Below, piece by piece: positions 34,845 through 64,000 of a stretch of DNA of 64,000 nucleotides. A program made the translations under genes and the position numbers. Position 1 is the first letter of the stretch. The number at the start of each line of letters is the position of its first letter. Below the pieces are notes generated by a model. The model searched no databases. It was not told where the DNA came from and saw only the letters and a program-made list of their open reading frames with translations. Origin of the DNA: Tubulanus polymorphus (Eukaryota > Animalia > Nemertea); the NCBI RefSeq assembly GCF_964204645.1, contig NC_134036.1:9279859-9343858 (forward strand). Direction: 5' to 3'.

Positions 34845-35125
34845 GCGGAGTGCCACAAGGATCAGTTCTTGGTCATATTCTGTTTATTATCTCGACGTTA
34901 ATCACCTACACGAACTTTTCGCCGATGATCACCAGATCAACGAGGTGGTTCAACCTAACAAGTGTTTACAGTGTAATGTCTAAACTGTCATACAGATGTA
35001 AATCTGACTTCATAACCCTGGTTTCTTCGCATGGAAAATATCATTAACCGGTTGATATCCATTCAGAAATTGATGGAACTGATATTGCACAATCATATAA
35101 CGTTTAGAACCTAGGGACAATTGAC
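34845..35125 (+). pseudogene. Non-LTR retrotransposon (CR1/L2-like) reverse transcriptase fragment
   Basis: RGVPQGSVLGHILFII followed, after a frameshift, by FADDHQI. Confidence 0.7.
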
Positions 35126-38276: not shown

Positions 38277-38626
38277 AGTAATAGGGGTAATGGGCTTTCA
38301 GATCAAAGGTCGAACGGTCGAGCTCATTAAAAAACAAAACATTAAAAGTAATTTAAAACTATAATATATTTTCATAACCGTGTGCATTTTATATTATAAC
38401 TAAATATTTATTCTAAGATATCAATAATTTAAAAAGCATATTGATTTATTTACAATACACAAATTCATATAATCAAATATATTCAAATAATAATAATTAT
38501 TCTATTATTCAACTGAAATACACACGGTTATGAAAATATATTATAGTTTTAAATTACTTTTAATATTTGTTTTTAATGAACTCGACCATTCAACCTTTAA
38601 CCCGAAAGCCCATTACCCCTATTACT
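38277..38626. repeat. Terminal fold-back of copy 2 (arms 38277-38389 and 38516-38626, AT-rich spacer)
   Basis: Arms aligned by hand. Confidence 0.9.
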
Positions 38627-38706
38627 CTTAAAATATTCATATAAATGAATAACATTTAAATCATTGAACTTCTAAAATCAATTTTAATAAAAAATTTAGT
38701 ATAGAA

Positions 38707-38910
38707 ATGGAAGCAAATAAGTACTACTGTCCAACATGTAATATCAATATAGATAAATCCCAAAAAGCAAGACACAATAAAACTAAAACACATTTAGAGA
38801 ATAAATTGAAACTAGAATATTTACAGTTATATTCAGAACAGTTAACAAAGGCAAAGAAATTTATTGAATTATGGAATAATGATCCAAATAATGAACAATA
38901 CGTTGAGTAA
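38707..38910 (+). CDS. 67-aa chimeric mini-ORF: PolB Zn finger plus HNH C-terminal tail
   Basis: First ~38 aa match the PolB N-terminus; LQLYSEQLTKAKKFIELWNNDPNNEQYVE matches the end of 40554-40886. Confidence 0.6.
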   Translation: MEANKYYCPTCNINIDKSQKARHNKTKTHLENKLKLEYLQLYSEQLTKAKKFIELWNNDPNNEQYVE

Positions 38911-39039
38911 TTTGATATCAAGGATCCGATGTTTATACTAGAACATGATTCTATTTGAACCTATATACATTCTATGTAAAGAGCTATGGAATAAATCTAT
39001 AAATTCACAGCTGTTACAGCCGTTACGCCGAGACATTAT

Positions 39040-39210
39040 GACTCATAATATTACAAACGTGTATAGAAAATTCTAGAAAGGTGTGCTGGAACTCTGAATA
39101 GAGATGACACGTCATAATCAGAAACGTGTAGAATATTCTAGAAAAGGCGCGCCGGAACCAGATGACGTGGCATAATCAACGACGTGTCATTCTAGAAATC
39201 GCCCCGGAAA
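39040..39210. promoter_or_regulatory. Candidate stress-responsive promoter repeats (heat-shock elements, TGACGTGG)
   Basis: GAAnnTTCnnGAA at 39066-39078 and 39131-39143, TTCTAGAA at ~39190, TGACGTGG at 39163-39170. Motif match only. Confidence 0.4.
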
Positions 39211-39759
39211 TGAACAGACGCTGTAATATTGTGCTCAGGATATTCTATCTATCGAAACGAAATTAGGAGATTATAGTTTACAATTATAAATCTAAATGTA
39301 AGTACTGTTTGTTGTAGTTATTAGGGCTATTAAATATGAAACCTTTAGATGTATTTAAGTGTATTTAGTATATCTTTTAGATGGCTAGAGTTGCCGCTAA
39401 TATCTTTTTGATTAATAAAACGCCATACGCATCAAGAAGTGATAGAGAAACTCAAGATACTCTTTCTGACTGAGGAATCAACAGCAATGGATATCGAACC
39501 AATAGAAATAAGCACAAGAAACACAAGAATCGCCAAAAGATCGACGAAGAAACTATATAAGGATTTCAAAAACATTAAGACTCCAATGATTAAGTTTAAC
39601 ATTTGTTGATGTAGTTAAATATTTACCAGCAATTGAAAAAATGTTTGTAATTATAAATTGTATTTATAGAAATCAAATGATGTATTGGAAGAAACGGCCG
39701 AACAACTTGTATAATGTATTGTGTAAATCTGTTTGGTGAATTTTTATGTTCGGTCGTTT

Positions 39760-40095
39760 CTATTCATTATGTAAATATAATTATGATTAGCGCATGCGCA
39801 TTGATCAAAAGCGCGCACGAATGCGCGGTTTGCTCAGTGGTATGATTTAGATATTCCATGTCGGTTGTTTCTAATTACATAATGAATATATAATTAGGAT
39901 TAACGCATGCGCATTAAGCAAAAGCGCGCATGAATGCGCGGTTTGCCTAATGCGAACACGTTTAGATATTTCATGTCGGTTGTTTCTATTTACATAATTA
40001 TATATTCATTATGTAAATATAATTATGATTAACGCATGCGCATTGATCAAAAGCGCGCATGAATGCGCGGTTTGCTCAGTGGTATGATTTAGATA
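39760..40095. repeat. Three ~120-bp tandem repeats with CGCATGCGCA cores
   Basis: CGCATGCGCATT..CAAAAGCGCGCA.GAATGCGCGGTTTGC at ~39791, ~39904 and ~40033. Confidence 0.85.
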
Positions 40096-40213
40096 TCAAG
40101 GAATCGAAACAACTTATCAAAAGCAACGAGGAATGAAAAAGGATGACGTTGGTCGAAGAAATGGAAGAGGATTCTAAAATATTAACCAATTTAGTAAAAA
40201 ATACATATAATAA

Positions 40214-40886
40214 ATGGAACCAGAACAACCACAAATTATCAATATTACAAATAACACGTGTTATAAATATATATTACAAGAAGTGTTCTAAGTGTGAATT
40301 AGATAAATCATTAACAGAATTTAGTAAGCGTAAGATTAGCAAAGATGGTCTTCAATATTGCTGTAAAACTTGCACTAAACTATATACTAAACAATATCGA
40401 GAAGATAATATAGAACATTATAATTATTATATGGCAGAATATATGAGAGAAAGATATCAAACAGATCTTAATTTTAGATTGAAACAATGCTTAAGATCTA
40501 GATTAACACAATTATTCAACAAAGAAACACATTAAGAAACATTATCTAATTTATTGGGTTGTTCAGATGAATTTCTCAAATCATGGATTATATTTCAATT
40601 CGATGATAAAATGAATATAGATAATTATGGGGATTATTACCATATTGATCATACGTTACCGATTTCTAAATTTAACATGAATGATGAATACAATAAAAAA
40701 CTTATTTGGAATTGGAAGAATTTAAGACCTTTAGAAAAGAAGGAAAACATAATTAAATCTTATAAACTAGATTTACAGTTATATTTAGAACAGTTAACAA
40801 AGGCAAAGAAATTTATTGAATTATGGAATAATGATCCAAATAATGAACAATACGTTGAGGAATTTGATATCAAGGATCCGAAATGA
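40214..40886 (+). pseudogene. HNH endonuclease, copy 2
   Basis: TAAATG start MEPEQP, early frameshift, stop at 40533-40535; HIDHTLP...NWKNLRPL..KENIIK. Confidence 0.8.
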
Positions 40887-41187
40887 CTTATCTGGACAGT
40901 TATAATTACTGCTCCTAATAGATAAACAAAAGTAGTGAGATATCAAATAGATTTTAAATAAAAAGTATTTAAAAAACAATAACTTCAACTAGCTTGTGAA
41001 TTCTATTATATTTTTAATATTTTCTTTTCAAAAAAGAATACTTTATATCACAAATAAAAAATACTAAAAAAACAATAACTAATACTAAAATTCTTTACCT
41101 TTAACTAAGCTAGTATTAATCTAAAGAGATACTGGTATCATTTGAAGAATACTTAAAATATTTTTTTTGCTTTTTTCTCTAATATAT

Positions 41188-41789
41188 ATGTCAAAGAAAT
41201 CTAATAAGAATAGTATTGATATTAAAAAAACATTAGATGATTTAGGTATTAGTGATAATAAAGATACAGTTGTTTCTAATTCTATTCAAGTTAATAACAA
41301 TATAGATTATGAATACTATTTATATTGTAAGCATCATCTAGAACTATTGATTGCCGGTGGAAAAACTAATGAGTTTTTAAATAGAATCATTACTTTTCAA
41401 GAACTAGACTGTATGAAACCAGATAAAGTAAAAAAATATTTTAAGATTTATGAAGAAGCTAGATTAGCTAGAATAAATGATTCTATTTCAGATGGTATTG
41501 TCAAATGTTATTCTAAGTTATGTAACCAGTTAATACCAATTGATGATTAAATAAATTATATAGTGATTTAAAAAGTGACTACTTAGTTATGACTGAATTA
41601 CAAAAATGGGTTGGTTATGCTTCATTTCAATTAGGATCGGTTATGACATTAATTTCTACTGGTGTCATAACATTTTCGAACATCAAACCTATAGAATGTA
41701 AATCAGGTAAGAACGAAACAGATGTACTACAACCAAACGTCGAAACAGATAATGAATCAGAACAAAAATTAACTAAAATAAATGAGTGA
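41188..41789 (+). pseudogene. Ortholog of the 200-aa gene, frameshifted near 41548
   Basis: Alignment to 14326-14928. Confidence 0.8.
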
Positions 41790-42149
41790 TGGCGTAAGAA
41801 AAAGCCTAGATCCGAGAAACAAATTAAATGGGCAAGAGAATTAGGTAAAAGATCTTCAGAATTAAAAAAAGCTAAGAAAAAGAAATTAACTGATATAAAT
41901 GAATCACAGACTTTATCTGATATTGATACGAATGATAATCCATCTAATTCTTCTAATGCTGGAAGTAATTATAAATTATATATTACAATTGGATTAGTAA
42001 CAGTTATTATATTATCCGGTGTAATATATAAATCAAAATTCAAATCTGATGATAAAGATGATTCCAATGACAATAAACCTATCATACCAGAAAATAAGTC
42101 AAATCATAAAGCCATTGAAACTAAATCTAAGTTATTATTAATGGATTAA
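41782..42149 (+). pseudogene. Ortholog of the 131-aa TM gene, early frameshift
   Basis: Nucleotide match to 13938-14333; lacks the 27-bp insert. Confidence 0.75.
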
Positions 42150-42155
42150 AATAAG

Positions 42156-43253
42156 ATGAAAAAAGAAAAATATTTAAGAGATTTATATTATAACCCAGAG
42201 AGTGAAGTATCATATTCTAACGTTTCAGAATTATGGAATAAAATTAAATCTGATAATGGTGGTATAACATATAGTGAATTAAAATCATGGTTACAAAATC
42301 AACCAACATATCAAATACACAAGAAAATGGATAAAACTTATTTAACAAGAAAAGTTATGGTTTCATATATTGATCAACAATGGCAAGCAGATTTAATTGA
42401 CATGAAGAACTTAGAAGAATACAACAAAGGATATTTCTGGATATTAAATGTTATAGACATATTCAGTAGATACGCATGGTCAATTCCAATCAAAAATAAA
42501 ACTGGAATAGAAGTAACAAATGCTTTTAAATCAATATTTAAAGAAGCTATTCCAGATAAGATACAATTTGATGAAGGTAAGGAATTTTATAACAAACATT
42601 TCAAAAAACTATTATCTGATAACGATGTAGATTATTTTTCAACACACTCAGATAAAAAAGCATCTATTATAGAAAGATTTAATAAAACATTGAAAACTAG
42701 AATGTGGAAATATTTTACTGCTAATGAAACATATAAATATATCGATGAGTCTATAAATATATTAGATGATTTAGTGAAAGGTTATAATAATTCTAAAAAT
42801 AGTTCTATAAATATGAAACCTATACAAGCTAGACAAGATGATAATTGAGAAATAGTACGGAATAATTTATATGGAGCGTTTGTTACACATGATTTCGGTG
42901 AACCTAGATTTAAAATTGGACAACATGTTAGAATATCTAAATATAGAAAAACCTTTTATAAAGGTTATACCCCAAATTTTACAGAAGAAATATTCAAGAT
43001 TAAAAAGATAATATTAACTTAACCTTTTGTTTATAAATTAGAAGATCTAAAAGATGAAGAAATATTAGGTTATTTCTATGAACAAGAATTATCACTTGTA
43101 CCAAATCCAGATGAAATAGAATACAAAATAGAAAAAGTATTGAAAACAAAAACTCTTAAAGGAAAAAAGTATTCTTTGGTGAAATATAAAGGATATGATG
43201 ATAAATTTAATGAATGGATTTTATCTAGTAAAATTAAAAGAATAAATGAATAA
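42156..43253 (+). pseudogene. Integrase-chromodomain, copy 2, with premature stops
   Basis: DDE motifs as in copy 1; stops near 42846 and 43020. Confidence 0.9.
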
Positions 43254-43857
43254 AGATTTATTTATATTTGAACCGCATAATATGTTAGTTACTGGAGTAA
43301 CCAATTGTGGTAAAACACATTTCATATTAGATTTGTTAGAAACTATTTATAAGAATCATTTTGATAATATAATATTATTCTGTCCTACTTATGAAATGAA
43401 TAAAACGTATAATAGAGATATAGTTAAGATAAAAAAGTTTATTATATTAAATCCTAAAACAGTAAAAGAAAATTTAGATAATTGTATTAAAATAGCAATT
43501 GATACTTATAAAGGATCAAATACATTATTCATTATAGATGATTGCGCAAATTTACATGATTCAAAAGTTAGAGAAAGTGAGTTATGTTATCTAGCTTTCT
43601 CTGGGAGACATTTTGGGATAACAACATGGGTTTTAAATCAAAAATGTAATTCAATTGTTAAAGACTTTAGGGAGAATATAAGATTTCTAGTTTTATTTTA
43701 TAACAAAGATAAAAAATCTATGCAACAATCATTGGAAGAAAATCAAATTATACCTACTGAATTACATGATGAATATATGAATAAATAAAAGAATAATAAA
43801 GGTTCAAAATTATTACTGAGACTTCAATTTCCCTATGAATATAAATTTATAAAATAA
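43246..43857 (+). pseudogene. Packaging ATPase, copy 2, premature stop at 43786-43788
   Basis: Walker A and B present; TTA>TAA relative to copies 1 and 3. Confidence 0.9.
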
Positions 43858-43888
43858 CTATTTATAATTTGGAATATTATAGAAACTA

Positions 43889-44219
43889 ATTTATATATCT
43901 ATGTACTAGACGTACGAGTAAGAAAGTAAGATTCTTACCTTTTTACTTTCTTGGCAAGAATCTTGGATTCTTACGTACGTCTAGTCCATAGAAATATGAA
44001 TTATTAAATGAAATATATAATAATGAATAAATTATATATTAAAACTATGTTTATAATTTATGTTTATAATTTATGTTTATAATTTATGTTTATAATTCAT
44101 GTTTATAATTTATGTTTATAATCTATGTTTATAATTTATGTTTATAATTTATATTTCTTGGCAAGGATTCTTGGATTCTTACTTTCTTACTCATACGTCT
44201 AGTGCATAGATATATAAAT
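43889..44219. repeat. ~46-bp inverted repeat enclosing 8 copies of a 13-bp unit (TATGTTTATAATT)
   Basis: Arms 43889-43934 and 44174-44219; tandem array 44046-44149. Confidence 0.85.
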
Positions 44220-44252
44220 AGTTTTACAGATATATAAATAGTTTTATAATAA

Positions 44253-45418
44253 TTATTCTAATTTTGTTTCTAATACATTTATAAAATCATCTTCGTTTAT
44301 ATCAAATTCTCCATAAGTCTTTGGTATATTTATTGAGTTTAGTCGAGCCATCATTAATCTATAATCAGTAGGCATATTAATTTTTTCTTTTATTTTTTCA
44401 AAGTTTTCATCAAAATCATAATGATAAAAATCAACATCATATCCAAAATTAATTATCAAATAAGTTGAATCTTTTCTTCTCAAATATAATAATTTATACA
44501 TTTGTTCAAGATTATCGTTTGCATAATCTAAAAATTTACGTAATAACAAATTATAGAATATTTCATATTGGTTAATATTATAATCAAAATATTTGATATA
44601 TTCTAAAGGGTTATTTAACAATGGTAACATACCCACTTTTTTATAAACATTAATTAGATGTAATTTTGATTCATAATGAGTAATTTTATCAACAGGTTCA
44701 ATTTCTTTATTACAATAATCACATATTAATCCTTTTCATTTTCTATGTGCCCCTTAGATTTTTTATGTTTAGAAAAATTACTTTTAGAAATATCTAAATT
44801 ACAAATGTTACAATGTTTTTTAGAATCATCAATTATTTCATTATCTGTTATATCATTATCATTAGTTTCGATTGGGTTAACATTATTTATTACATTATCT
44901 GTTATATTATCTATGTTATCATTAGTTTCAATTGGGTTAACATTATCTTTTATATTACTAACTGATATATTATAATCATTATTATTCTTTTCTTTTTCTA
45001 TATGTTTCTTTGATTTCTTATGTGATGCCCAATTTTTATATGATATATATATCTTACATACATCACAATATTTTGGATTATAATAATCTTTTTTTGATTC
45101 AATATCATATGTAGAGGGTATATTATAAGATGTAGATGCTGTTACATCTTCTATTTTAGTTTCAATATTATTACTATCTTCTATTTTAGTCTCAATATTA
45201 TCTTCTATTTTGTATTCAATATCATTCTTATCTTCTATTTTAGTTTCAATATTATTTTCTATTTTAGTTTCAATATTATCTTTTATTTTACTTATTCTAT
45301 ATTTGAATTGATTAAAGTAATCTCCAAAATATTTAATGTATTCATCATAAGGTAATATATAATATATATCTGATATCATTTCACTTGGAGTTTGTATTTC
45401 ATATATTCCACCTTCCAT
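44253..45418 (-). pseudogene. Variable-slot gene of copy 2: IETKIED repeats and three C2H2 Zn fingers; frameshift near 44730
   Basis: CDVC..HKKSKKH, CNIC..HKKSKGH and, in the shifted frame, CDYC..HYESKLH leading into ORF 44253-44636. Confidence 0.7.
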
Positions 45419-45450
45419 TTATTATATAAATTTTTTTTAAAGTTAAAATT

Positions 45451-46699
45451 TTAATACATAACACTATCTAATTGTGAATTTACAATATTTAATTGCGCGT
45501 CAGATATAATATAAATGTGCATTTTGAAATTTTTGATTCCCTTATTCTTTGTCATGAATAATTGTATGCCATCTTTAGTGTTCTGTAGTTTTTTTCAAGA
45601 ACCATGTAATGAATTATCCTCTGTTGTTCTAAAATCTAACCATAATGCATATTTATTACCGGTATAATAATCAATTTGATTAATGTTACAATTTTCAGAT
45701 GATTTTACTCTTTCATTCATAATATGTTTTCTAATTTCTGGCCACTGATCTATCATTCTCATTCCTTGACAAAATATTTTATTTGCTATTCCTTCGATAG
45801 TTATTTCTACTTTTGTTATTTCAGGATTATAATAATTATCAACATTTATTGCGCCATTAGTATATGTTGCAATGGTAAAAAATATTAATATACCTTTAAT
45901 AGATCTTCTTGGGAAGTTAATATTCTCATTAATTATTTCATCATTTGCATTAATAGTTACGGTTTTAAATTTATCAATATAATCATATAATAATGAAAAT
46001 CCTTGATTGTATTGAGTTTGAATTATACTTGAAATATTTTCATCAGTTACTGTATCATATTCTAAACATATATTCGATAATTTATAACCCATATCTTTAA
46101 CAACGCCAGATAATACAATTTCATTTACAGGAGCAAATGTTATCTCAAATATAATATCTTCTTGAATTACATATTTATATAAAGGTGCATTATTATTTAT
46201 CAATTCAAAGTCTAATGGAATTTTATATTTGCTTCCATAAATCTTTTTTTATCAAATTATCTGTGGCACGAGTTACTATTGCGTCATTAGCTCCCGATCT
46301 TAATTTATTATGGTTTTCCGATTGAATACCCTGAAATATCATATTATTTCTATTTTCTTTAGTTAACCATAAATCTTTATAATGCATAAATAAATTATAA
46401 TCATCTAATGAGAAAACTGTTTCTGGACCAATTTTTATAGTTAATTTTTTAATCAAATACCTTCCAACATTATCAACAACATAATTATTATCATGACCAA
46501 TTACTTTTATATCAGCTGATAAATAAATACTATTTGGAACATAAAAAGTATTTTGTGTTAATCTATGAATTCTAACATATAAAGTTTCATCGGGATTGAT
46601 ATTAGAAGGGTTATGAGTAATTATATGATGTGATCTTTCTGCTTTAATAGCATTAGATATTCTATGATTCTTAGAAGGGTTGATATAACTCCCACTCAT
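45451..46699 (-). pseudogene. Major capsid protein, copy 2, frameshifted
   Basis: ORF fragments 46223-46699 and 45595-46203 align to 9830-11077. Confidence 0.88.
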
Positions 46700-46738
46700 T
46701 TATTTAACAAAAAATTAATTATTTATTTTTGATCATGG

Positions 46739-48408
46739 TTACTTGATATTTTTTGATATCATATTCACTAACCCAAAAATAATAGCACTTACAACTGTAA
46801 TTAAAAATAAAATAATATGTTCAGCAGCAAAGTTAATAATGTTTCCTGCAGATTTCAATATAAAACCAACAATTGATGCAATAATTCCTGGTAAAGCTGC
46901 AGCAGATTTTTTAGATAGTTCCCATAAATATTTTGCTAATTTCTTTAAACCATCTTTAACTTTATCTTGTATAGAATTATTATCATTCGGGGGTTTATCC
47001 GGTTCATTGGGAGTAGGAGTAGATTTTAAAGCATTTGATATTGCTAAACCAATTGTTGTAAATAACATAGTTACAGCTGTTAGAATTGAAAGAATTGTTA
47101 TTCCTTCTAAATTAAATAATAACTTTATTCTATCTTTCAATGATATTTTAGAATCTGGTTTAATTATTAAATCTTTAAAAATAATTTTTTAATATGATTA
47201 AGATCATATGATTTTAATAATGTATCTCTTTCTTCTTTTTGTAATTTTATGTTATATTCTAAATCATCTATTTCTTTTACTAAAGCTAACTTTCTACTTT
47301 CATAATCAGCTTCATAAACTACTTGATGATCTCTATTTAATTCTAATTGTTTTAATTCTTCATCTGCATTAGCTAATTCTTTTTCTAACATGGTTATTTT
47401 AGAAAATCTCATCTTAATATTAGCAATTTCATCAGCTGATACTTGTATACCTTTAATTTCTCTACGTATTTGTTCGGGAAATGTTTCTAATTCTTCATCA
47501 GTTAAATTAAGAAATCCTTTTTCTAGTAAATATTGCAGTCGATTTATTCCAGCACTATTCATCTCTTTTTCTGAGTCTCTTAATCTATCAATTTGTTTTT
47601 CTAATTTTAATTGACTTGAATAATTATCAATTGGTTGAGTGTCTCTTCTCGATGTTTCGGGTGTTGAAGATCTTAATCTATCTAATCGATCTCTATTCTC
47701 TTCCATTTCTGGATCAAAATCAGTAGGATTTGGATTTGGATTTTTAAATGGTGAATATTTGTTTATATCAATATTAGGAATTGGTTCTTCTTTATTTATT
47801 CTATCGAGTGCATTCCATATAATTCTGAGAAATTCTGCGCCACCTTTTGAACGTTCAATTGTAGATCTTGCTAACATTTCAGGTTCAAAAATATTTTCTT
47901 GACCCATTTTAGATAATTGTATTGATGCAGTTTTGTTATTTAATTCAACATTATAATACCATGAATCATTTTTAAATTCTAAATTATTCGTGAAATATGG
48001 GTCATCTTTTAAAATTTGTTCTACAACATCTTCAGTATCAATTTCATGTATTACAACTATTGGTAATAATTCGTTAACAATTGTATCTGTTACTCTAGAT
48101 TTCATTTTATATAATTCCATTTTTTTATCAGGATATTTTTCTTGTTGTTTTTCTAATAGTTCCATAAATTCTTTTTTTTCTCTTCTAGTTGAAATTCTAC
48201 CACTTTCAGGAGCTTTTAAATATTTATTTAATTTTTCACGTAATTCAGAATTAATTCCATCATAATCATCATCTTCATCTAAATTAGTATTATATTCTGT
48301 TTTATTATCATTACTAAAACTTGCTTCATCAAAATCAGGTTGATGTTCATCACTTATACCAGGTTCATCTAAAGGATCCATTGGAAAATCTTCTCCACCT
48401 TCTGCCAT
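46739..48408 (-). pseudogene. Ortholog of the 557-aa coiled-coil/TM gene, frameshifted near 47190
   Basis: Two ORF fragments align to 8087-9760. Confidence 0.85.
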
Positions 48409-48424
48409 TTACATAATACAAAAA

Positions 48425-50187
48425 TTAAATCTTAAAATATAATATTCCTCCGATTACAATTCCTATACAAGTTATAGCTAATTTAGTATTTTCATGGGAT
48501 TTATTATCATCATTTAGTTTAATTATATCATGTTGAATAATATCAGTTTTTATATCTTCTGATGTATTATAATCTTTTATTTTAGAATCATTATTTAATT
48601 TAATATTATTAGTTTTAGTTTCAGTTGATTGAATATGTTTTTTATTTTTTTCACCTTCCATTAATTTTGGAGCAGTGATAATCTTTTTATTTATATCATT
48701 TAATCCAAATGAATTATTTATTGTTGCAGTTTTAATTAGATTATTATAACCAATTATGTTTCCCATCTTTAATACTAAATCATTAGAAATAATAAATAGA
48801 TTAGGGCCTATACAATAATTTAATCTAATATGTGATTTATCTAAATAATTTTGATATCTTACAATGTTTTCTGGAATCGATCTATTTTTATCATTATGAA
48901 TTGAATCTTCAAATAATACTTTAAACTATTTCTGCGCATCGAATGAAGTGTTATAATTTCCAATTATTGGGGATCTTTTTTCAACTTGCGCACCTAAAAT
49001 ACATATCAAATAAGTTCTAATAGATTGATTTATTCTTTGTATACCTGATTTTGTAAAACCTTCACCATTTTCTAAAATGAAATTAACCCAACCATTATTA
49101 TTATCAATTTTATAATTATGATAAGCTGAAATTCTATGCATATAATCAATTCTTTTTATTTCAAACTCTTCACTTTATAAAACTTAGATAGATTAATATT
49201 ATTATCCAATTCTTTAAAATATTTAGACCCGGGTAAAGGACATTCTAATTCATTTAATATTATTCTGATTTGAAAATATGTGTGAAATCTAAATATTGTG
49301 TGAATTAATTTTAAATCAGAATACTTCAAATTTTTATCTAAGTTATTTAAATGATCATTCCAACTTATTCCACATCCTGTTGTTGCACAATAAACAGCAA
49401 AATCTAATTGGTTCTGCCAATATTTCATATTAGATTTTACTTTATATATATGATATTCATCTCGAGTAAAAGTAACTTCATATGTATTAAATACATTTTC
49501 CATTTTAGAAATAAAAAACTGTGATTCAGTGACATAAATTTCTAAATTAGTTAATGAATTTAAAACTACATTTCTATATGTAATATTTTTCTTAAAATCT
49601 ATTGCAGGAATATTATATTTAATTGATTTATTATATTGGAAAGCTTTAGTTGCTTCGAATGTTTTTGTAGGATCGATTAAATTGCAATAAATATAAAAAT
49701 GTGTGTGAGGTATTAAGTTTGGTGTAACAGCATCAATATTTGTAAAAGATCTATCTGGAAGAATTCCTAACAGTTTAGCTATAGGTTTTTTTACCATAAA
49801 TTTATGTTTTTCACTATTAGACAACCTTATCTTTATTCTATCAGAACTCTCACTTTTTAAAAATCTAATACTAAACCCAGAACTACTACCTAATTTGTGC
49901 CAGGCTTTTCTATTAATTTCTTGTGCCAATGTATCTAAATTATATAACCCTGGCTTTAAATATATATAGACCCATTCATTTTTGTTTTTATTAAAAATTA
50001 AAAAAGCTCTTTGTTCAATAGTTTTATTCGATATACTGTAAAATGAGTTACATAAACTTATATTTACTAATTTTAAATCTACACAATTTTTATATTCCCT
50101 ATCTAATTGAACTAGTAAATTATGAGATTTATAATTTGTAAGTCTTCTAGAATCTACAAATATTCTGTATTCTTTTAATTCTACCAT
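48425..50187 (-). pseudogene. Deletion fusion of the penton N-terminus to the 442-aa gene
   Basis: Junction TFEATK|AFQYNK near 49643; further deletion and stops downstream. Confidence 0.85.
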
Positions 50188-50204
50188 TTATTTTACATAT
50201 TTTC

Positions 50205-50564
50205 TTATTCGAAATCTATTTCATGGTGCCCCTCTTGGTGCCCATTCTTACCTTTGTATACGAAATAGAAATCTCCAGAACATAATTCTTCTAAATCTTC
50301 ACTTGATAATCTATGAAATCTATCAGGTAAATATGTTCTGAATTTATATGTATTTCCTTTTAATCCTTCATATTCTAAGTGTATAACTAATTTATCTCCA
50401 TAGTTATTAGTAACTGTATCAATATTTGTAATTAGATATTTCTTATCAATTGTTAATTCTGTTAACTTTTTGAGTTTATAATCTACAGATTTTACATTTG
50501 TTATATGTTTAATTCTATCTAGAAATAATTTGTTGTTCTCACTGTGTGCTTGTTTACTCTCCAT
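50205..50564 (-). CDS. Ortholog of the 113-aa protein (119 aa)
   Basis: Intact; aligns to 4112-4453. Confidence 0.75.
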   Translation of the reverse strand: MESKQAHSENNKLFLDRIKHITNVKSVDYKLKKLTELTIDKKYLITNIDTVTNNYGDKLVIHLEYEGLKGNTYKFRTYLPDRFHRLSSEDLEELCSGDFYFVYKGKNGHQEGHHEIDFE

Positions 50565-50593
50565 TTTAATAACATATTTTTATTAAAATTTGA

Positions 50594-53500
50594 TTAACAC
50601 GTTAGAATTCTTTTCATTATCTCGTTCTCTTTTGTTTCTTCTCTTTTAAATTTTAAGTATTCATCTAAATTGCAACCATAAGCAACTGTATGAATTCCAT
50701 CATCTAAAATATATCTTTTATCATCAAATGGGTTTAGACTTATCTTTTCAATTTCTTCAATAAACATTTCATGATCTTCAGATCTTAAACATCTCATCTT
50801 ATGTTTTCTAACTTCTTCTTTGAATATACAATTGATGTAATCTTTGAAATGAATATTCTTTTCTACTACACTTTTGGTTATTCCTTTTAACTTTTTAGCT
50901 TCATGTTCTTTAGTTTTATATGAATACATTTTAGATCTAATACCAATGAATTCAATCATTTCTTCACCACCTAATTCATCTTTGAATTTACCGGGAACTT
51001 TTTTATTATCATTGCTAAACAATTCATGATCTTTAGGATAATTACTAAAATCAAAATGATGTTTTAATGTTTTTAAATCATCAGTTATGTTATCAGTTTT
51101 TATCTTTAATATGTAAGAATCGGTATCAAAATATAATATTTCTATATGTTTTTCTCCAAAATGAGGTTGTAATACGTTATAATAGAATTCATACATTAGT
51201 AATTTTGATAATTCTAAAACTGAAGCGCCAACATAGATTGGTTTATTAAATTTCATTGATGTTCTTCTCATCTTAACTGCGGCTAAATTTTCATCAAATA
51301 TTCTGTTTCCAATGAACTTAGGATATGTTTGTAAATGTCTAATTCTTTTACCATTACTGACTAACTCAATATCATTTCTATTTCTAATATTTTCACAAGT
51401 CTTACCATAGAATGCATTATTCATTAACTTGAAGAAATCTTTTTTCGAAATCAGTTTTAGCTTTAGTTCTCTGTTTGGTGTTAAAATCTATATATTTTTC
51501 TAACCACTTAGATTGACTAAATGAAATATATCTATGTACTTTTTTTAGGATCATTCCTTGATTCAAATAAAACTTTAACATTCTATAATGTACTACATAA
51601 TTATATTTATCTTCTTGAGTTACCATTAACTTTTCTGTATGAATATGATTTTCGGGTTTAATTCTTTTTTGGTAATTTGATAATTCTTCATGAGTTACAG
51701 TTTTATGTTCGGGACAGTATGCTAGATTTCTAGATTTAAATCCAAATACTCCATAAGGTTGTGGTTCCATCATTGCCCAACCATAAAGATTATTTGCATC
51801 TATATATAATAACTTATATCCGGGGTTATCATTTACATTGAAATATCTATCCCCTAATACACCTGAAACTCCTCCTCTTATAGATTTTTCAAATAATAAT
51901 AATTGATCTATATTTGTTAACAAATCCATTTTTATATTTGTAAATTTTAATCCACAATCCCATGTTAAACCTGGTGATGAATAACAATGACAAGGATCAA
52001 TATTGAAATATTTTAGGTTTACATCTCTAAACCTTTCGAATATATCGGTTAATAATAATACATCTGATTTTAAATATATATCTACTAATTGTCCATGATT
52101 TTCTATTTTGAAATGATTCCAAATATTCAATGTTCTATTATAGACTTCATCTTTAACATATTCATTTTTTAATTCATCATAGAATTGTTCTTTCAATAAT
52201 TCAGTTATATTGAAATCATTATGATTCTTATAAAATGAATATGGAATTGCTCCTTTATATCTCATTAATTTAAAATCATCATTATTTGGGTAATGTTGTT
52301 TTAATATCTTTAATTCATCATCAACTAATGATTTTGGTAAGTTATCTAATGAACTATTTAAAAATCTATATGAATCTATAAATCTTTAACACCCAAATTG
52401 GAATGATATATAATTCTCAGATGTTTTAGCTAACATTCTAAATTTATAAGTTGGTATTTTATCTTTTGATCTATTTGAATTTAATATTTCTATTTCATTA
52501 TTGATTTTTTCTATTTTATGGCATAACTGTTTGATGAATAAATGTGCATCATATCCTGATAGATTATGAAATATAACTGGTACAAAGTTAATTTTCTTAG
52601 CTTGTAAGTTACAATTTTCATGTGCAGCACCTCTAAACTTTCCATTCAAATGATCATGGTCTCTTACTTTTTTATCTTTATAATTAAATATCTTTTCACA
52701 ATAATAACATTTACCTGCAAACACAAATTCTTCTTTAAATTCTTCTGTCATTATAATTTCTATATTTGTATTCAATAATTTACTAAATCTTATTTCATAT
52801 TCAATTAATAAGTCACAAAAATCATTGATAACATTTTCATTTCTGTAATGATAATATTCACTTTCAATTAGTTCTGGATAATCAGATTTTATATATAACC
52901 CGAAAGCAGCAGCTGATTGATGAATCTTTTTAATTGTATTTGTTTTTGGTGGTTCATCTGAAAAATCATTTTCATTAGAATTTAATTTCTTTCTTTTATA
53001 ATATATTTCTTTTCTATCTTGATCAGTTAGTTCTTTATTTAATGATTCAAAATCTCCATATATTACAAATGGTACTTTATTTTTGTAATCATAGTTTTTG
53101 AATTCTAATATTTTATACTTTTCATTTGGTAAAACTAATTTACAATAATCATGATTTTCACATAATTGTTTATGATTTAATAATGTACTTTCATTACTGA
53201 ATTTATGTAAACATTTTCTACTAAGATATATTTTATGGTGATCATTTTCTGATTTAAAAAATAAATCTATTTGTTTAATCCACATACAATGATTCTCATG
53301 ATATAATATATCTATAACATCATTTGAATCATAATCTTTTGATAGATATAAAGGTTCTAATGTATAATGTTTTATATTGTTACCTTTTGTATTTGGTAAT
53401 TTGATTAAATCAAATACATTTATTCTTAAATTATTATCTCTTTCTATCTTTGGGACGTTTTTAATTCTAACAGGATACTTATCTATCTTATAATTATTTT

Positions 53501-54497
53501 CAAATGGTTTATAATGAGTTAATCTACAAATATTATAAGTTGCAGGATGTAAACAACTTATTATAGTCCATAGTAAACATTTATCATCAAAATTTTGTAC
53601 ATTTATTACAGCATAAGTTTTAAATGGTAGTTTAATATAACTTGTTCCATTTATACTATCATCTTTATAATATGATAAATTATTTTCATCAATTGGTTTT
53701 GATTTAGTTAACTTATTATATTTTGTGTTATAAACATGTAAAGTCATAAATATTATTTCATCAAATATTAAACCAGATCCTTCAAAATATTTCTCTTCTA
53801 TTTTAGTTTTTACTTCATTAGAACATTTATCTAATTTATGATCTATATGTTGTTTAGATATAATATGTTGTGAATGAGAATTTATATTATATATTGGTTT
53901 ATCTTCAGATTTTATGAATTTAACTTTTGATGAAATACTTATTTTAGGATATTCAACATCAGTTATTATTTTTATTATTTCTTTCATATTTTCTAAATGT
54001 TTTTTATTTTCTTCTAATGTTTTTCCTTTATGAAATTTAAACTCAATAGCTGCTGGGCCAATATCACTTTTAAATGCTTCGGTTATCTCTATATCTTTTT
54101 TATTATCTAATGAATTAATATAATTTCTTATATCTTCCATGTATGGTCTTTTATTGTTTAATCTATTTTTTATGCTTTTAATTGTCTTCTGTTTCTTATC
54201 GTTATCATTATCAAAATAATCTTCACCTAAAATATCATTATTCTTATTTCTAATATGACTTATAGATTTTAAATGTTCTTTATAATATCTTTTATCACTG
54301 AATGATTGATTACATGCATCACATTTATATGTTTCTTTTTCATTCTTTAATTCTTCTAATTTAGTTTCTAATATATCATCTTTATATTCTAGTTTCAATT
54401 TATTCTCTAAATGTGTATTAGTTTTATTGTGTCTTGCTTTTTGGGATTTATCTATATTGATATTACATGATGGACAGTAGTACTTATTTGCTTCCAT
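50594..54497 (-). pseudogene. polB: pPolB, copy 2 (stop at 52386-52388, internal deletion near 51745, frameshift near 51440)
   Basis: Three ORF fragments align to copy 1; motif C YFDTDS is uninterrupted. Confidence 0.93.
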
Positions 54498-55539
54498 TTT
54501 AATACTAAATTTTTTATTAAAATTGATTTTAGAAGTTCAATGATTTAAATGTTATTCATTTATATGAATATTTTAAGAGTAATAGGGGTAATGGGCTTTC
54601 GGGTTAAAGGTTGAATGGTCGAGTTCATTAAAAACAAATATTAAAAGTAATTTGAAACTATAATATATTTTCATAACCGTGTGCATTTCAGTTAAATAAT
54701 GGAATAATAATCAAATCACCATATGTCCAGGAAAAAGACACTCGTTTGCATACTATACTGTATAATTCCTAAACTGAATGATCAGCCGGTATTGAACAGT
54801 ATTTGCCAATTCTTTCTACATTTGAATGAATCATTTACAAATTAAAATGGAATTTTCCGTTATTAATCTAGGGAGTCAGTACATTTCCTCGAGTAGTAAT
54901 TTATCTACATGGTGAATGAAACGTATACTTTCAGCCGGAACAAATTACTGAAAAAGAGGTTTTGAGTCCTGTTATGGTAAGTGTTGATTGAAAAAATTTA
55001 TAAGCTAGTGTAAAAGTAGCGCCGTTTATTTTCGATCTGGTTTCACTTATCATAATAATGTAACTTTGGCTTTTTTCATCAGATGATTGATATTAGGGAT
55101 ATTGATTGATTGATTTATTGTTTGGAATTGTGTGTAGTATTTGAATGTTTTATAATTTTGTCTCATTCCAGATCATGTTCTGAATTGTAGATTGGGGGTT
55201 ACCGCGGCCCAAATTAGAAAGAAAATTGGACAAATGCTGAAACAGTATAAATTGACGAAGTAAATCTGTAAATATTTGAAAATAAAATTCCCATCAACAT
55301 GTAAGCTTACACAAGTGAGTTATTACATTTGGTTGGTAATTTTGAAACTTCATTTTGTTTTGCCACTATGTGGATCTCCTTTCAGGCAATGAGTTTTTAG
55401 GAAATTGTGAAATATGGATGAAACAATGAAAGAAGTGGTCAAATTTTGACCATTATGAATGTGTGCTTATACTTCTTCTTGAATACAGTCGTGTGGAGCT
55501 TGAACAATGAGGATGACTGCAGATCACATGCGTTAAAAA

Positions 55540-58461: not shown

Positions 58462-60126
58462 TTTCATAAACATTATTTAAATACCATCGTCCTTTTTGTC
58501 CTTTATAGTTGAAAAAAAAGTTGATTGACGCCACGGGTGTGTCCATTCATGTCAATGTCTTGTCATTTAAGTGTACACAATGACACTGCATACTAGTACA
58601 CCGGTCACGGTTCTGGTTCTGTCACTGCAGAGATAGCGTGTCCGTGTACAATCCATATTAAAGAAACTTTGTAATGCTGGATATTGAATAATAAAATGCC
58701 CATGGGCAAAGTGTGGTTTACCTTGAAAGCTAAAGGTTGTTTGGAATGAGGGCATTGTTTGAAAAATCATCTCCGTAGTGCACGGGAAATTTGTCTAATA
58801 GCGTAGATTTCGAGAATTATTCTAAAATTATAACTTCGTCCAGAGCGTCATCTCTGTGTTAAAAATGAAACAGTACATTGAATATGTGCGCTTGTACGTT
58901 ACCAGCTTTTTAATATAGTCACTATGAGAATGAATGGCAGCTTATTGGAACACTGCCAGTTTCCTGGAAAACTTAAGTTAGGCCACATGTCAAGGCATGT
59001 TTTCACACGATGCACACTTGAATTCAAACATACGTACCTCATACGTAGGCAGTGGGTCGGTCGGCCGTTTTTATCAAAAATAAAATGTATTTCAATGAAT
59101 CCCAATAAAAAGTTTTCACTCGGTACCTTTGAAGTCGGGTCGGTGGGGGTATGGCAAAAAGACCATTAACATGGGATGGCCTAAAATTCATATGATGTCA
59201 CATCTCAGAGGGTGGCTGAATATTGGGTCTTCGAAACCCCTCTTCCAATGTTGGCGGCCGAAGTTAAAATACCGGTTCGTGTTATAATAGATATAATATA
59301 TAACAGATCGTGTTATATCCAGGAATTAACGACTACTACATTTAGACCTCGACCTATACTTTGGATTGCTGCTTAATATTTTCAGGTCACAAGAAATTGC
59401 AATTTATTACAGCGCTCATCTTCTGCTAGGATCATTCAGCCTATTTTCATGCCAAACGTGCACGCGTTACATCATCACCATTAGTAGTGTACTGTACGAG
59501 CTTGTGTGAGTGTCGTGTAGCACTCCGTGCGCACGTGGAGGCCTCGTGTAAGTGAATGTTCGCTTACACTTAAATTTCATTCAAAACAATCACCGGGTAT
59601 TACAATGAAACAATACCTATGGCGGATGTATGAAATATTTACATCCTCACCAGCAATGAGCATTTAAAATTCGCATGTATACGGCACCTAGTCTAATGAA
59701 ACCTACGCCATTCTATGGCTTTCCCATAATTATTTTAGTAATGCCGGAATTCCCCGTATATCCCAAAAACAGCCAATCCCATTCGCTCGTAGAATATATC
59801 GAGGTCATTATTATTATTCATAAAATTTTATAAGCGAGAGCTAAGAATTTTCCCGCAAAAAACAGTTTTTCGTTGAATTTTAACTCAGTTGACCATGTCA
59901 TCGACGATGGTTCGCCATGTCTTCAATCGCATCGATTATACGTAATTTAAGCCGAGAACCAATGAAACAAATGCTCACATAAAAAAAACGTAGCGCGATT
60001 TTACATGAATTGGCTCAATGCCAACATCATATCGCAATAATATATAAATATATTGTCGTTTACCCTATATTCTGTACACTATTCCAGTGTCAGCATTCGG
60101 AATCAGTATTTCTCAAAAGCTGTTAC

Positions 60127-60340
60127 TTAGAAGATCTAAAAGATGAAGAAATATTAGGTTATTTCTATGAACAAGAATTATCACTTGTACCAAATCCAGA
60201 TGAAATAGAATACAAAATAGAAAAAGTATTGAAAACAAAAACTTACAGGAAAAAAGTATTCTTTGGTGAAATATAAAGGATACGATGATAAATTTAATGA
60301 ATGGATTGTACCTAGTAAAATTAAAAGAATAAATGAATAA
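60127..60340 (+). pseudogene. Integrase chromodomain fragment
   Basis: LEDLKDEEILGYFYEQELSLVPNPDEIEYKIEKVLK; abrupt junction to host DNA at 60127. Confidence 0.85.
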
Positions 60341-60944
60341 AGATTTATTTATATTTGAACCGCATAATATGTTAGTTACTGGAGTAACCAATTGTGGTAA
60401 AACACATTTCATATTAGATTTGTTAGAAACTATTTATAAGAATCATTTTGATAATATAATATTATTCGGTCCTACTTATGAAATGAATAAAACATATAAT
60501 AGGGATATAGTTAAAATAAAAAAGTTTATTATATTAGATCCTAAAACAGTAAAAGAAAATTTAGATAATTGTATAAAAATAGCAATTGATACTTATAAAG
60601 GATCAAATACATTATTCATTGTAGATGATTGCGCTAATTTACATGATTCAAAAGTGAGAGAAAGTGAGTTATGTTACTTAGCTTTCTCTGGGAGACATTT
60701 TGGGATAACAACATGGGTTTTAAATCAAAAACATAATTCAATTGTTAAAGACTTTAGGGAGAATATAAGATTTCTAGTTTTATTCTACAATAAAGATAGA
60801 AAATCTATGCAACAATCATTGGAAGAAAATCAAATTATACCTACTGAATTACATGATGAATATATGAATAAATTAAAGAATAATAAAGGTTCAAAATTAT
60901 TACTGAGACTACAATTTCCCTATGAATATAAATTTATAAAATAA
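60333..60944 (+). CDS. Packaging ATPase, copy 3 (open frame)
   Basis: GVTNCGKT, FIVDD, GRHFG. Confidence 0.9.
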   Translation: MNKDLFIFEPHNMLVTGVTNCGKTHFILDLLETIYKNHFDNIILFGPTYEMNKTYNRDIVKIKKFIILDPKTVKENLDNCIKIAIDTYKGSNTLFIVDDCANLHDSKVRESELCYLAFSGRHFGITTWVLNQKHNSIVKDFRENIRFLVLFYNKDRKSMQQSLEENQIIPTELHDEYMNKLKNNKGSKLLLRLQFPYEYKFIK

Positions 60945-61341
60945 CTATTAGTATACCTATGTATTACATACCCTAATACCTGATACCCTATTAGATACCC
61001 TAATACCTACTATGTATTAGATACCCTATTAGATACCTTAAATACTTAAAACCCCCTTTTTTAAAATAAATATTATCTATACAATTTTCAACCAATTTAT
61101 TTTTATTTTTTCAACTATTATATGAATAAGTTTGAAATAATAAAGGTTATATATTATTACTGAGGTTTCAATATAAATTTAAAAAAGAAATATAATTTAA
61201 GGTATTTTCAAATAATATGTATTAGATATGTATTAGATATGTATTAGATACCTTAAATACTTAAAACCCCCTTTTTTATTTACTATTATTTTATACAATT
61301 TTGAACTAATATTATTATTTGAGTTAAATATAATTAATATT

Positions 61342-61740
61342 TTAATCACTTTCACTATCATACCCTAACATTTTTTTCAAATTCTCTACCGAATTTTCTT
61401 CTTCAAATTCTTTATTATTTTTATACTTATTCTTCACCCTTTTTATCGCATCATCAATAGTTGTTTCACTGTTATGCTTATTCATCCAATCAAATTTATC
61501 ACTATTTTCTACTTTATGTTTCATAGAATCTTTAATATCAATATCTGTAACTATATTTTCATTATCATCTTTATTAGTGTTTGCTCCTAATATTTCATTT
61601 ACAATGTTTGATCCTAATATTTTATTAGCATCGGTTAAATCTAATTCATCTTTATTAGGTGTTGCTAATAATAAATCTTCATATAATTCTTTACCGTTTA
61701 CTTTTTTATTTGAAACAAACTTTGTAACATATTTAAATGG
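61342..61740 (-). pseudogene. 3' part of the copy-1-type variable gene
   Basis: PFKYVTKFVSNKKVNGKELY...ELDLTDAN...MKH...MLGYDSESD matches 11635-12070. Confidence 0.8.
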
Positions 61741-61744
61741 GTGT

Positions 61745-64000
61745 TTTTAAGTCTTTTGTTATGTCATTTGTCTTGATTTTTAGTATGTACGCATCAGTAT
61801 TGAAGCAAATTAATGGAAATCCGCAGTTAAATGTACGATCTTCAGTTGATAAATCATAAACATAATCTGTTGGGTTATATATTTCAAATAAATCTTTAAC
61901 TTCTTCAGTTAAATCTTTTTCTGTGTGGCTTAAATTAAAGCAATTTGGTTTAGATTTAATCAATCCAATATTCATATTGAAGCCTAATGAATTACATAAT
62001 ATGTTTAACCCTGATATAGCAACTTTTCCGTTTTGAGCTAAAGATATTGCTGGAGAACTCGTAAATTTTTAGCACCATCTGCTGCGTAGAATCAAATGAA
62101 GAACCATTTTCTTAAATTATCTTTTGCATTTAATACATAATCTGGAACTATCTTTTCTTTTGTTGAAGTATTACTTTTCACTATTGCATGAATATAGAAT
62201 TCATCATTATATTTTATAGCAAAATCTTTAGGATTATTTACAAGTATTCTATTAACTGCTGATGATTTCATAACATCCAGGATTCTAAATGTTTTATGTG
62301 AATAAACTTCTTCACAGAATTTCTTAATTCTTTCTAATAATTTCAAGTCTTGATTGCATAAATACCAACAATATTTATTACCCCAAACATAATTATACAC
62401 ACCTGCTGAACCATCTCCCATAAAAAATCCTTTGATAAAATATTCTTTTTCTTCTAATGTTTCGGGTTCTTTATTATAAATATTATCAATTATTTCATCA
62501 AATGACATATGATTCATTCTTGGGAAAAATCTTTTATGTAATAATTCATCTCCAATTTTTATATCAGTTGGTTTTATTTCATCGCCATTTCGTTTAATTA
62601 AACTATGATCTTCTGTAACATCTACAAACCCTAATTTAGTTCTAACTCTATAGATCTTCTTATTTGTTTTATGCCTAATAATATTCTTTAATTTTTTCCA
62701 TCCATTTCTTGTCCAAACATCCATTAAACCATTTATTTATATCAATTCTTTTTCACCATATGAAATATAACATTCATTTTGTTTTGGAATTATTTCTGAA
62801 ATTCTTCTTATCAATATTTTATCATTACATTTTAATAATATTGGGGTGTCAGCTGTTACAGAATCAAAAAATAATATTTCAATATGCTTTTTCCCAAAAA
62901 GCGGTTGTAAAACATTATAATAAAAATCATACATTAATAATTTTGATACTTCTAAAACAGTTGAACCAATGAATATAGGTTTATTAAATTTCATTGACGT
63001 TCTTTTTAATTTTACTGCTGTTAAATAATCTTCAAATCTTTTATTTCCTAAATGTCTAGGACTTGATTGTAAATGTCTTAATCTTTCAGAATTATTTACT
63101 AATTCAATATCATTTCTATTTCTAATATTTTCACATGTTTTACCATAAAAACTATCATTCATTAATTTGAAGAAATCTTTTTCAAAATCTGTTTTTGATA
63201 TGGTTCTCTGTTGAGTATTGAAATCTATATATTTTTCTAACCACTTCGATTGATTAAATTCAATATATCTATGTACTATCTTCAATTTCATTCCTTTTCT
63301 TCAATTTCATTCCTTGTTATAGATAAAATTTTAACATTCTATGATGAACGATATAATTGTATTTATTATTTTGAGTAAGTATTAATTTTTCTGTAAAAAC
63401 ATGATCTTTCGGTTTTATTTTCTTCTGGTATTCACTTAAATAACTATCATCTACGGTTAAATGTTCTCGGCAATAAGGTAAGTTTCTTGTTTTAAACTTT
63501 AAATCTTCAGGATATTCTAAATCAACTACAAAGAAATAACCAATTGGTGCTTCATCTTTTAAACTCGCAATTGCGCTTTCCCAATCAGTTTTATTATCAT
63601 TTTCAACTTCTGTCAATATAAAATGTTTATATGGTTGAGGTTGCATCATTGCCCAACCATATAAATTATTGGCGTCAATATATAATAATCTATATTCATC
63701 ATTTGCTTTAAAATATCTATCTCCCATAACACCACTAATTCCACCTCTAATTGATTTTTCAAATAATAAAACCATGTCTGGTTCTTTTAATAAATCTAAC
63801 TCTACATTTGTGTATTTTAAACCACATTGCCAGGTTAAACCAGGACTAGAGTAGCAATAACAAGGATCAACATTAAAATGATTCAAATTAACTTCTCTAA
63901 ATTTTTCAAATATGTCAGCCAATATCATAACATCTGATTTTAAATATAAATCAACTAATTCACCATGATTTTTCATCTTAAAATGGTTCCAAATATTTAA
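61745..64000 (-). pseudogene. polB: Divergent pPolB with an intein; C-terminus deleted
   Basis: YIDANNLYGWAM, KLMNDSFYGK, ILFFD|intein|TDAYILKIK; stop and short duplication at ~63280-63319. Confidence 0.9.
61799..62862 (-). mobile_element. Intein (~355 aa) with LAGLIDADG homing endonuclease in PolB motif C
   Basis: Block A SVTADTPILL, block B VDVTEDHSL, LAGLIDADG motifs IKGFFMGDG and FI(*)FYAADG, block F YVYDLST, block G ICFN followed by Thr. 1064 nt with two in-frame stops and one 1-nt deletion. Confidence 0.92.

Follow-up and report, generated by a model that had tools for sequence, protein, structure and literature searches.

A decayed LAGLIDADG intein of the pol-c family in the protein-primed DNA polymerase of a Polinton-type element from Tubulanus polymorphus

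A stretch of 64,000 nucleotides (nt) assigned to the nemertean Tubulanus polymorphus (contig NC_134036.1, positions 9,279,859 to 9,343,858), hereafter the window, was analysed. In it, the DNA polymerase gene of a Polinton-type element is interrupted by an intein. Three AT-rich stretches (~21-26% GC), embedded in surroundings of 31-40% GC, each represent a copy of the same Polinton-type element. Copy 1 extends from position 1 to about 16000, and copy 2, with terminal inverted repeats, from 38493 to 54711. Copy 3 lies on the minus strand at approximately 60000-64000, is heavily deleted and runs past the window edge at 64000. Several of the genes and repeats that characterise a Polinton/Maverick element were found. 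They comprise a DNA polymerase of family B that uses a protein primer (pPolB; Pfam DNA_pol_B_2, PF03175, E 3.5e-15 in copy 1) together with a retroviral-type integrase (rve, E 6.8e-9 in copy 1, with a chromodomain attached), an A32-like packaging ATPase (Pox_A32, E 2.1e-12 in copy 1 and 7.1e-11 in copy 3), and long terminal inverted repeats, which in copy 2 are located at 38493-38820 and 54384-54711 (328 nt, 97% complementary). In the comparison with Pfam, the candidate open reading frames (ORFs) for a double jelly-roll capsid protein and a cysteine protease gave no match.

The pPolB gene of copy 3 is split within motif C. In copies 1 and 2 this motif is uninterrupted and reads ...IEILYFD/TDSYILKIKTDNITDDLKT (YFD/TDS; here and below a slash marks the insertion point). 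The intein-free sites lie at 3538-3567 on the plus strand of copy 1 (site after 3552) and at 51110-51139 on the minus strand of copy 2 (last N-extein base 51125), and 21 and 26 of the 30 flanking bases, respectively, are identical to copy 3. On the minus strand of copy 3 the polymerase reads ...FGKKHIEILFFD/SVTADTPILLKCNDKIL... and then ...GFPLICFN/TDAYILKIKTNDITKDLKT, corresponding to ILFFD/SVTADTPILL...PLICFN/TDAYILK. Since in the alignment with copies 1 and 2 the extra sequence starts right after the D and stops right before the T of motif C, the insert is delimited to 61799-62862. The split described in an initial annotation of this DNA was thereby confirmed, and so was its length, the measured 1,064 bases being one base short of 355 codons.

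The insert has the features of an intein, namely an in-frame insertion at a conserved site with intein-free homologues, Ser1, a TxxH motif, and a terminal Asn followed by Thr. From Ser1 to the terminal Asn, the decayed intein occupies the whole of the interval given above, as judged from the alignment with the intein-free copies and from the motif coordinates; all its parts are on the minus strand, and the splicing blocks are named according to the usual nomenclature. The N-terminal splicing block SVTADTPILL, with the Ser1 nucleophile, is found at 62833-62862, and SVTxDTP is kept in 157/159 related loci starting YGD/S. Block B, VDVTEDHSL (TxxH), lies at 62599-62625 and is nearly invariant in the alignment. 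The two LAGLIDADG motifs, located by alignment with related inteins, are KGFFMGDGS (62407-62433) and FYAADG (62074-62091); in both (GFFMGDGS and FYAADG) the acidic residues are present. The C-terminal splicing blocks, DYVYDLSTED ... GFPLICFN with the terminal Asn and a penultimate Phe, span 61799-61867 (DYVYDLSTED at 61838-61867, PLICFN at 61799-61816). When aligned with 57 related sequences, the splicing blocks and both endonuclease motifs listed in the initial annotation were all present and all matched conserved columns.

The copy 3 intein is a dead relic. Two in-frame stop codons are private to this copy. The first is at 62737-62739, where 171/171 reads of an independent Illumina run carrying the same species label (X6) have another letter at 62739, and the second, immediately before the second LAGLIDADG motif, is at 62092-62094, where 108/111 reads differ at 62094. 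In addition, a frameshift is located in an A-run at about 62066-62070, the frame changing between FYAADG... and KFTSSPAISLAQNGK; in its neighbourhood a one-letter length difference was seen in 9/35 reads at 62065 and in 3/13 at 62061. Owing to the stops and the frameshift, copy 3 is unable to splice. Its inactivation had been recognised from the outset, and the two stop codons have to be added to the frameshift as lesions.

The remainder of the copy 3 polymerase, also on the minus strand, is damaged as well. The N-extein, comprising the palm region up to the first half of motif C (...HIEILFFD), occupies 62863-63300 and is 83.6% identical to the intein-free P0165. The upstream part, at 63317-64000 and beyond the window edge, matches DNA_pol_B_2 with E 1.1e-7, and between the two upstream pieces the frame is shifted where a short segment is duplicated in tandem (cttcaatttcattcct...) at about 63280-63316. 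On the other side of the intein, what is left of the C-extein, TDAYILKIKTNDITKDLKT with the second half of motif C, covers 61742-61798. After these 19 codons the polymerase is cut short by an internal deletion and fused to the tail end of a second element gene (61342-61741), recognised by its translation as a homologue of the copy-1 ORF 11110-12099.

The relatives of the intein were sought among 1.84 billion proteins using its N-terminal 263 residues, with X at both stops. Of these, 1,925 matched at E ≤ 1e-3, of which 99 also passed E ≤ 1e-30, and the best E was 8e-59. All of the 25 top matches that were scanned carry PF00136, the classical family B polymerase, most of them with Pfam intein domains, and none of the 150 best representative matches matched the pPolB of copy 1. 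In archaea and giant viruses, the classical family B polymerases are well known to host inteins. The YGD/S junction was observed in 107 of the 123 matches with an aligned start and in 157 of 159 loci, and the C-terminal junction is xN/TDS. The Mimivirus PolB intein was matched with 43% identity over 97% of a 214-residue query (E 3.1e-32). Among the 80 best IMG/VR loci, 28 bear names with GVMAG, which we take to stand for giant-virus metagenome-assembled genome (MAG). For two near neighbours the exteins were analysed and found far closer to Pol delta or other large-virus-type polymerases than to archaeal ones. The best solved structure by sequence was PI-PkoII (E 9.4e-6), and in the ESM Atlas generic intein and LAGLIDADG clusters were the only matches. 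Concerning the pol-c allele, the D/T site in motif C and the clustering with pol-c inteins were both found, and the host is of the PF03175 type and not a classical PF00136 polymerase. The insert is therefore assigned as a LAGLIDADG intein of the pol-c family at motif C of a Polinton-type pPolB, in line with the initial annotation, including its Mimivirus connection.

The same intein is present at the same site in seven further public pPolBs (P0169, P0174, P0175, P0178, P0382, P0384 and L081), two of which, P0169 and P0174, are full-length and unbroken. P0169 has 1,693 amino acids and reads YGD/S...SN/TDS, with an intein of 354 residues that is 63-64% identical to that of the window. P0174 has 1,537 amino acids, stands for a cluster of 136 sequences and reads YMD/S...HN/TDS. 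P0175 and P0178 are partial pPolBs with the intein, P0382 belongs to a cluster of 121 sequences and P0384 is more divergent. L081 is a metagenome contig whose intein contains two in-frame stops; in L081:3070-4092 these fall in the endonuclease part, at the positions of a W and a Q of P0174, so that it represents another decaying copy. With the whole P0169 as query a metagenome scan returned 0 relatives. A second scan, with an alignment as query, returned 80 loci, among which a single locus was of the pPolB type; overall this type accounts for 1/160 loci.

The fold was modelled for the P0169 intein, which was used in place of the window copy. The model (predicted local distance difference test, pLDDT, 92.9) matched the TliVMA intein (E 6.9e-17, template modelling (TM) score 0.66), PI-PkoII, PI-PfuI (E 1.4e-13), PI-SceI and I-DmoI, the last with TM 0.68-0.74 normalised to the target. 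Both a Hint fold and a LAGLIDADG endonuclease fold are thus predicted in this relative. At the profile level P0174 gave 37.7 bits with Pfam Intein_splicing, above the cut-off of 35.8, as well as 31.1 with Hom_end, 24.8 with LAGLIDADG_3 and 52 with DNA_pol_B_2.

The reads of run X6 were used to evaluate the intein in the species. They span both intein-extein junctions with no dip to zero (bins 61755-61845 and 62756-62937), which speaks against the mis-assembly considered initially. The depth was 70-250x over the intein, compared with 228-327x over the adjacent N-extein and 27-72x over the host flanks. This suggests several intein-bearing copies' worth in the species, as a rough figure. Moreover, 99 reads continue from 61742 into LKHHFDFSNY as in copy 1, which is the normal polymerase continuation. 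In a marine-metagenome run one contig of 197 nt fell on 62426-62622, with two differences. The intein is hence a lineage trait, with many intein-bearing copies in the reads of the species.

Two further observations were made on the pPolB collection. P0170 and P0300, a Polinton pPolB and integrase fragments, are filed at NCBI under Bartonella sp. isolates, and are almost certainly eukaryotic contamination in bacterial assemblies. A large pPolB subclade (e.g. P0202 and P0208) has YMD-CDS and not DTDS in motif C, that is, a Cys at the would-be intein +1 position.

In the intein trees the pPolB inteins formed one clade, with starred support of 100 when four rows were included and 99 when six were included. 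Independent origins of the pPolB inteins were rejected on account of this single clade at starred 99. A tree of 63 rows was rooted on inteins of another polymerase site, presumably the one labelled "pol-b"; in it the four pPolB inteins lie under starred branches (97 and 98) inside the pol-c inteins of classical PolBs. In the tree with six pPolB rows, the Mimivirus intein falls in the same neighbourhood. A tree with pol-c inteins had been called for in the initial annotation; the one pPolB clade is nested among giant-virus-type inteins, and a giant-virus-type source of the pPolB intein would fit these trees. The initial annotation had also proposed that the invasion of a Polinton lineage perhaps came from a co-infecting giant virus. 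The source can be retained, and what has to be revised is the notion of one copy, given the seven further pPolBs and the many copies in the species.

The N-extein tree was restricted to sequences that cover ≥60% of the region, which left 89 of 101. In it the rows with the intein, six in number, are scattered and need six changes, of which the starred branches force at least five. An intein-free sister stands beside each intein-bearing row, for instance P0165 beside copy 3 (83.6% identity), P0172 beside P0169 (78%) and P0203/P0204 beside P0174 (95%). Such a patchy distribution on the extein tree is as expected for a homing element, as far as sequence comparison can tell.

Taken together, the best explanation is that a decayed LAGLIDADG homing intein of the pol-c family resides in motif C of a Polinton pPolB, derived from a single capture from a giant-virus-type polymerase that was followed by a homing cycle and by later decay; we give this a probability of roughly 0.85. 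In the intact relatives the intein would leave the polymerase by self-splicing, and polymerase genes that lack it would likely receive a copy through the action of its endonuclease. This history would have begun with a single ancient transfer, from a PolB of the giant-virus type to a pPolB. The landing site would have been the D/TDS motif common to both polymerases, presumably inside a cell in which both viruses were present. The intein may then have descended together with the pPolB clade for a long time. Such an old residence agrees with the identities of intein and extein, which go together in six of six pairs, and with the GC contents of 0.26 for the intein and 0.25 for the extein. Repeated gain and loss among close relatives would reflect the homing cycle, and the decay of copy 3 would have come after the inactivation of its element in the genome.

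Several points weigh against this explanation. The window copy scored only 20.7 bits with Intein_splicing, below the cut-off, which is attributed to the divergence and the breaks of its pieces; the unbroken P0169 also failed, with 30.2 bits, so that of these three only P0174 passes the cut-off. The penultimate residue of copy 3 is Phe instead of the textbook His. The initial annotation was correct in calling it non-canonical. As a warning sign it did not hold up: among 257 related inteins this position is variable (146 H, 92 K, 11 S, 6 F, 1 M and 1 R), and a penultimate Phe would be no sign of inactivity in this intein family. The trees were quick searches with Shimodaira-Hasegawa-type support (SH-aLRT or SH-like) and no bootstraps, and the sister of the pPolB clade varies, being the P0052 group (93) in one tree and P0012 (93) in another. 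The direction of transfer would rest on the rooting with inteins of the other insertion site. Absence of the intein is established at the DNA level for copies 1 and 2 only, and some of the "intein-free" database proteins could be gene models that treat the insert as an intron and leave it out. Among the read joints listed none skips exactly the intein, and no empty allele of the copy 3 type was seen in the species. Finally, splicing and target cleavage by the pPolB inteins are predicted activities.

One alternative concerns the host of the element. A protist or other eukaryote as host is possible, if doubtful, and with it the claim of a first intein in a metazoan genome would be lost. The closest integrase and pPolB relatives are on short metagenome contigs, the Rfam scan of the window gave 0 matches, and for the 58 ORFs of the host flanks Pfam returned two sub-cut-off matches only, WSC (E 6.8e-5) and zf-U1 (E 8.7e-4). 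However, the eukaryote-labelled integrase relatives, three among the best 120, all come from marine animals, namely a nemertean (57%), an octocoral (44%) and an amphioxus (44%). Weak hints in the same direction are (TA)n and (CA)n microsatellites in the flanks and a GVPQGSVLG relic, which we take to be the reverse-transcriptase motif of retrotransposons without long terminal repeats. An animal host is plausible. Within the host flank, that relic, for which Pfam gave nothing, lies at 34730-35044, and an exon with weak similarity to the WSC domain (E 6.8e-5, sub-cut-off) at 32253-32522.

Alternatively, the intein could be an ancient, vertically inherited passenger that lost homing, its patchiness being due to repeated precise losses or to spliced gene models. 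This is somewhat unlikely. The identities of intein and extein do move together in 6/6 pairs, the deep split in the intein tree mirrors the extein tree, the missing empty allele would agree with a passenger, and both L081 and the window copy are decaying. On the other hand, P0169 and P0174 keep both LAGLIDADG motifs and an unbroken endonuclease domain, and in P0169 the endonuclease part is still 59% identical to that of the window (splicing parts, 67-68%). At least five exact deletions of ~1 kb restoring motif C would be hard to achieve without recombination with an empty allele, and the intein-free sisters of P0174 are as close as 95%.

The reverse transfer, with the giant-virus pol-c inteins derived from Polinton pPolBs, is very improbable. 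Giant viruses and Polinton-like viruses share hosts, and the changing sister of the pPolB clade could be read in its favour. Against it, the six pPolB inteins make up one small clade, four of them lie under two starred branches within the far larger and more diverse classical-PolB set of the 63-row tree, and the pPolB type is so rare among the loci. The pol-c allele also occurs in archaea, according to the available text of Ogata et al. (2005, PMC549080). Lastly, it is hardly credible that the insert arose by chimeric assembly or contamination and lies outside the Polinton of this genome. Multi-copy Polintons are hard to assemble, and small pieces occur in the marine metagenome run, but the independent same-species reads covering both junctions, the GC content of the intein equal to that of the element (0.26, extein 0.25) and the same architecture in unrelated public records speak against it.

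Beyond the decayed pol-c intein of copy 3, a live homing-intein lineage may be circulating among the Polinton/Maverick endogenous viruses of marine animals, a proposal that we make tentatively. It would have been taken up once from the DNA polymerase of a giant virus, crossing between polymerase families at the common D/TDS motif. If true, these would be the first inteins in the nuclear genomes of metazoans and would record at the molecular level that a giant virus and a Polinton-like virus once replicated in one cell, and the endonuclease could still cut and convert intein-free Polinton copies in the germ line.

Additional features were noticed in the three copies. Copy 3 is apparently a mosaic. 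Its ATPase translation (60333-60944) is near-identical by eye to those of copies 1 (12239-12853) and 2 (43246-43788). On the N-extein side (62863-64000 compared with 2128-4083), the N-extein is 71% identical to copy 1 and 84% to the metagenomic P0165. This suggests that modules may be exchanged between Polinton families. A junction between 45437 and 54520 is seen in approximately 80 reads, which lack the intervening 9,082 bases and have the letters ACT at the joint. This looks like an abundant internally deleted derivative of the element, probably non-autonomous. In copy 2 the region 44001-45290, in which two zinc-finger-bearing ORFs lie (44253-45418), had a read depth of ~20-27x compared with several hundred elsewhere in the element, and is a rare cargo variant replacing the copy-1 ORF 11110-12099. 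The intergenic segment 60950-61290 of copy 3 contains repeated short motifs (atgtattagata..., and ccttaaatacttaaaaccccctttttt twice), which may be regulatory or terminator-like Polinton elements.

The finding implies a homing element able to cross between polymerase families that share little beyond the catalytic motif, and it ties giant viruses and Polinton-like viruses together by a concrete genetic connection. The naturally intact members P0169 and P0174 provide material for splicing and cleavage tests. Should the host be an animal, what textbooks state on metazoan genomes needs a footnote. In agreement with the initial annotation, the literature searched, supplements being outside the search, did not describe any Hint-type intein in the polymerase of a Polinton, and early Polinton papers may mention one. 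A known intein family is found here in a host protein and an element type apparently without earlier description.

The closest known system is the intein of the Mimivirus PolB, designated the YGD/TDS "pol-c allele" in the available passages of Ogata et al. (2005, PMC549080). Mimivirus and other pol-c inteins share with copy 3 the motif C site xD/TDS, Ser1, the terminal Asn, Thr+1 and a LAGLIDADG endonuclease. They differ in the host protein, which in giant viruses and archaea is a classical PolB (PF00136) and here a Polinton pPolB (PF03175). The N-exteins of the pPolBs read FFD, YMD, YSD or YLD, in contrast to the YGD of pol-c, with the exception of P0169, which has YGD. Unlike the Mimivirus and archaeal pol-c hosts, the element described here is present as multiple integrated copies. 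Archaeal PolB inteins of solved structure, PI-PkoII among them (2cw7, 1dq3), belong to the best fold matches of the P0169 model; they show 13-14% identity in the structural alignment, PI-PkoII has 537 residues compared with ~354, and their hosts are archaeal.

Two other systems are related in their genomic setting. According to the available text of Gallot-Lavallee et al. (2023, PMC10710043), inteins occur in an alga, a labyrinthulomycete and another species, where they lie on nuclear scaffolds within DNA polymerases of a viral-like kind. These endogenous viral elements likewise represent an intein in a virus-derived polymerase gene of a eukaryotic nuclear genome, but the hosts are termed there viral-like DNA polymerases, unlike the Polinton pPolB of the window. 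Jeong et al. (2023, PMC10748475) report, in the text at hand, that nuclease domains of the HNH and VSR types are inserted in the pPolB2 of Polintons; nowhere in the paper is the word "intein" used. In what is available of Krupovic et al. (2024, PMC11161782), it is suggested that such pPolB nuclease inserts "result from intein invasions". The pPolB of copy 1 also contains an Endonuclease VII/HNH-type insert (1557-2192; PF02945, E 2e-5), with matching parts in P0169 and P0174. A similar HNH domain is regarded by Jeong et al., in the passages at hand, as a signature of oomycete and terrestrial-nematode pPolB2; here the insert appears in a third setting, co-occurring with the intein. Like pPolB2, the pPolBs described here therefore harbour a nuclease domain, the HNH/Endonuclease VII insert being present too. 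The inserts of Jeong et al., as far as their available text goes, consist of nuclease domains alone, located elsewhere in the polymerase and reported without a Hint domain, whereas in the Tubulanus element a full Hint and LAGLIDADG intein is lodged within motif C.

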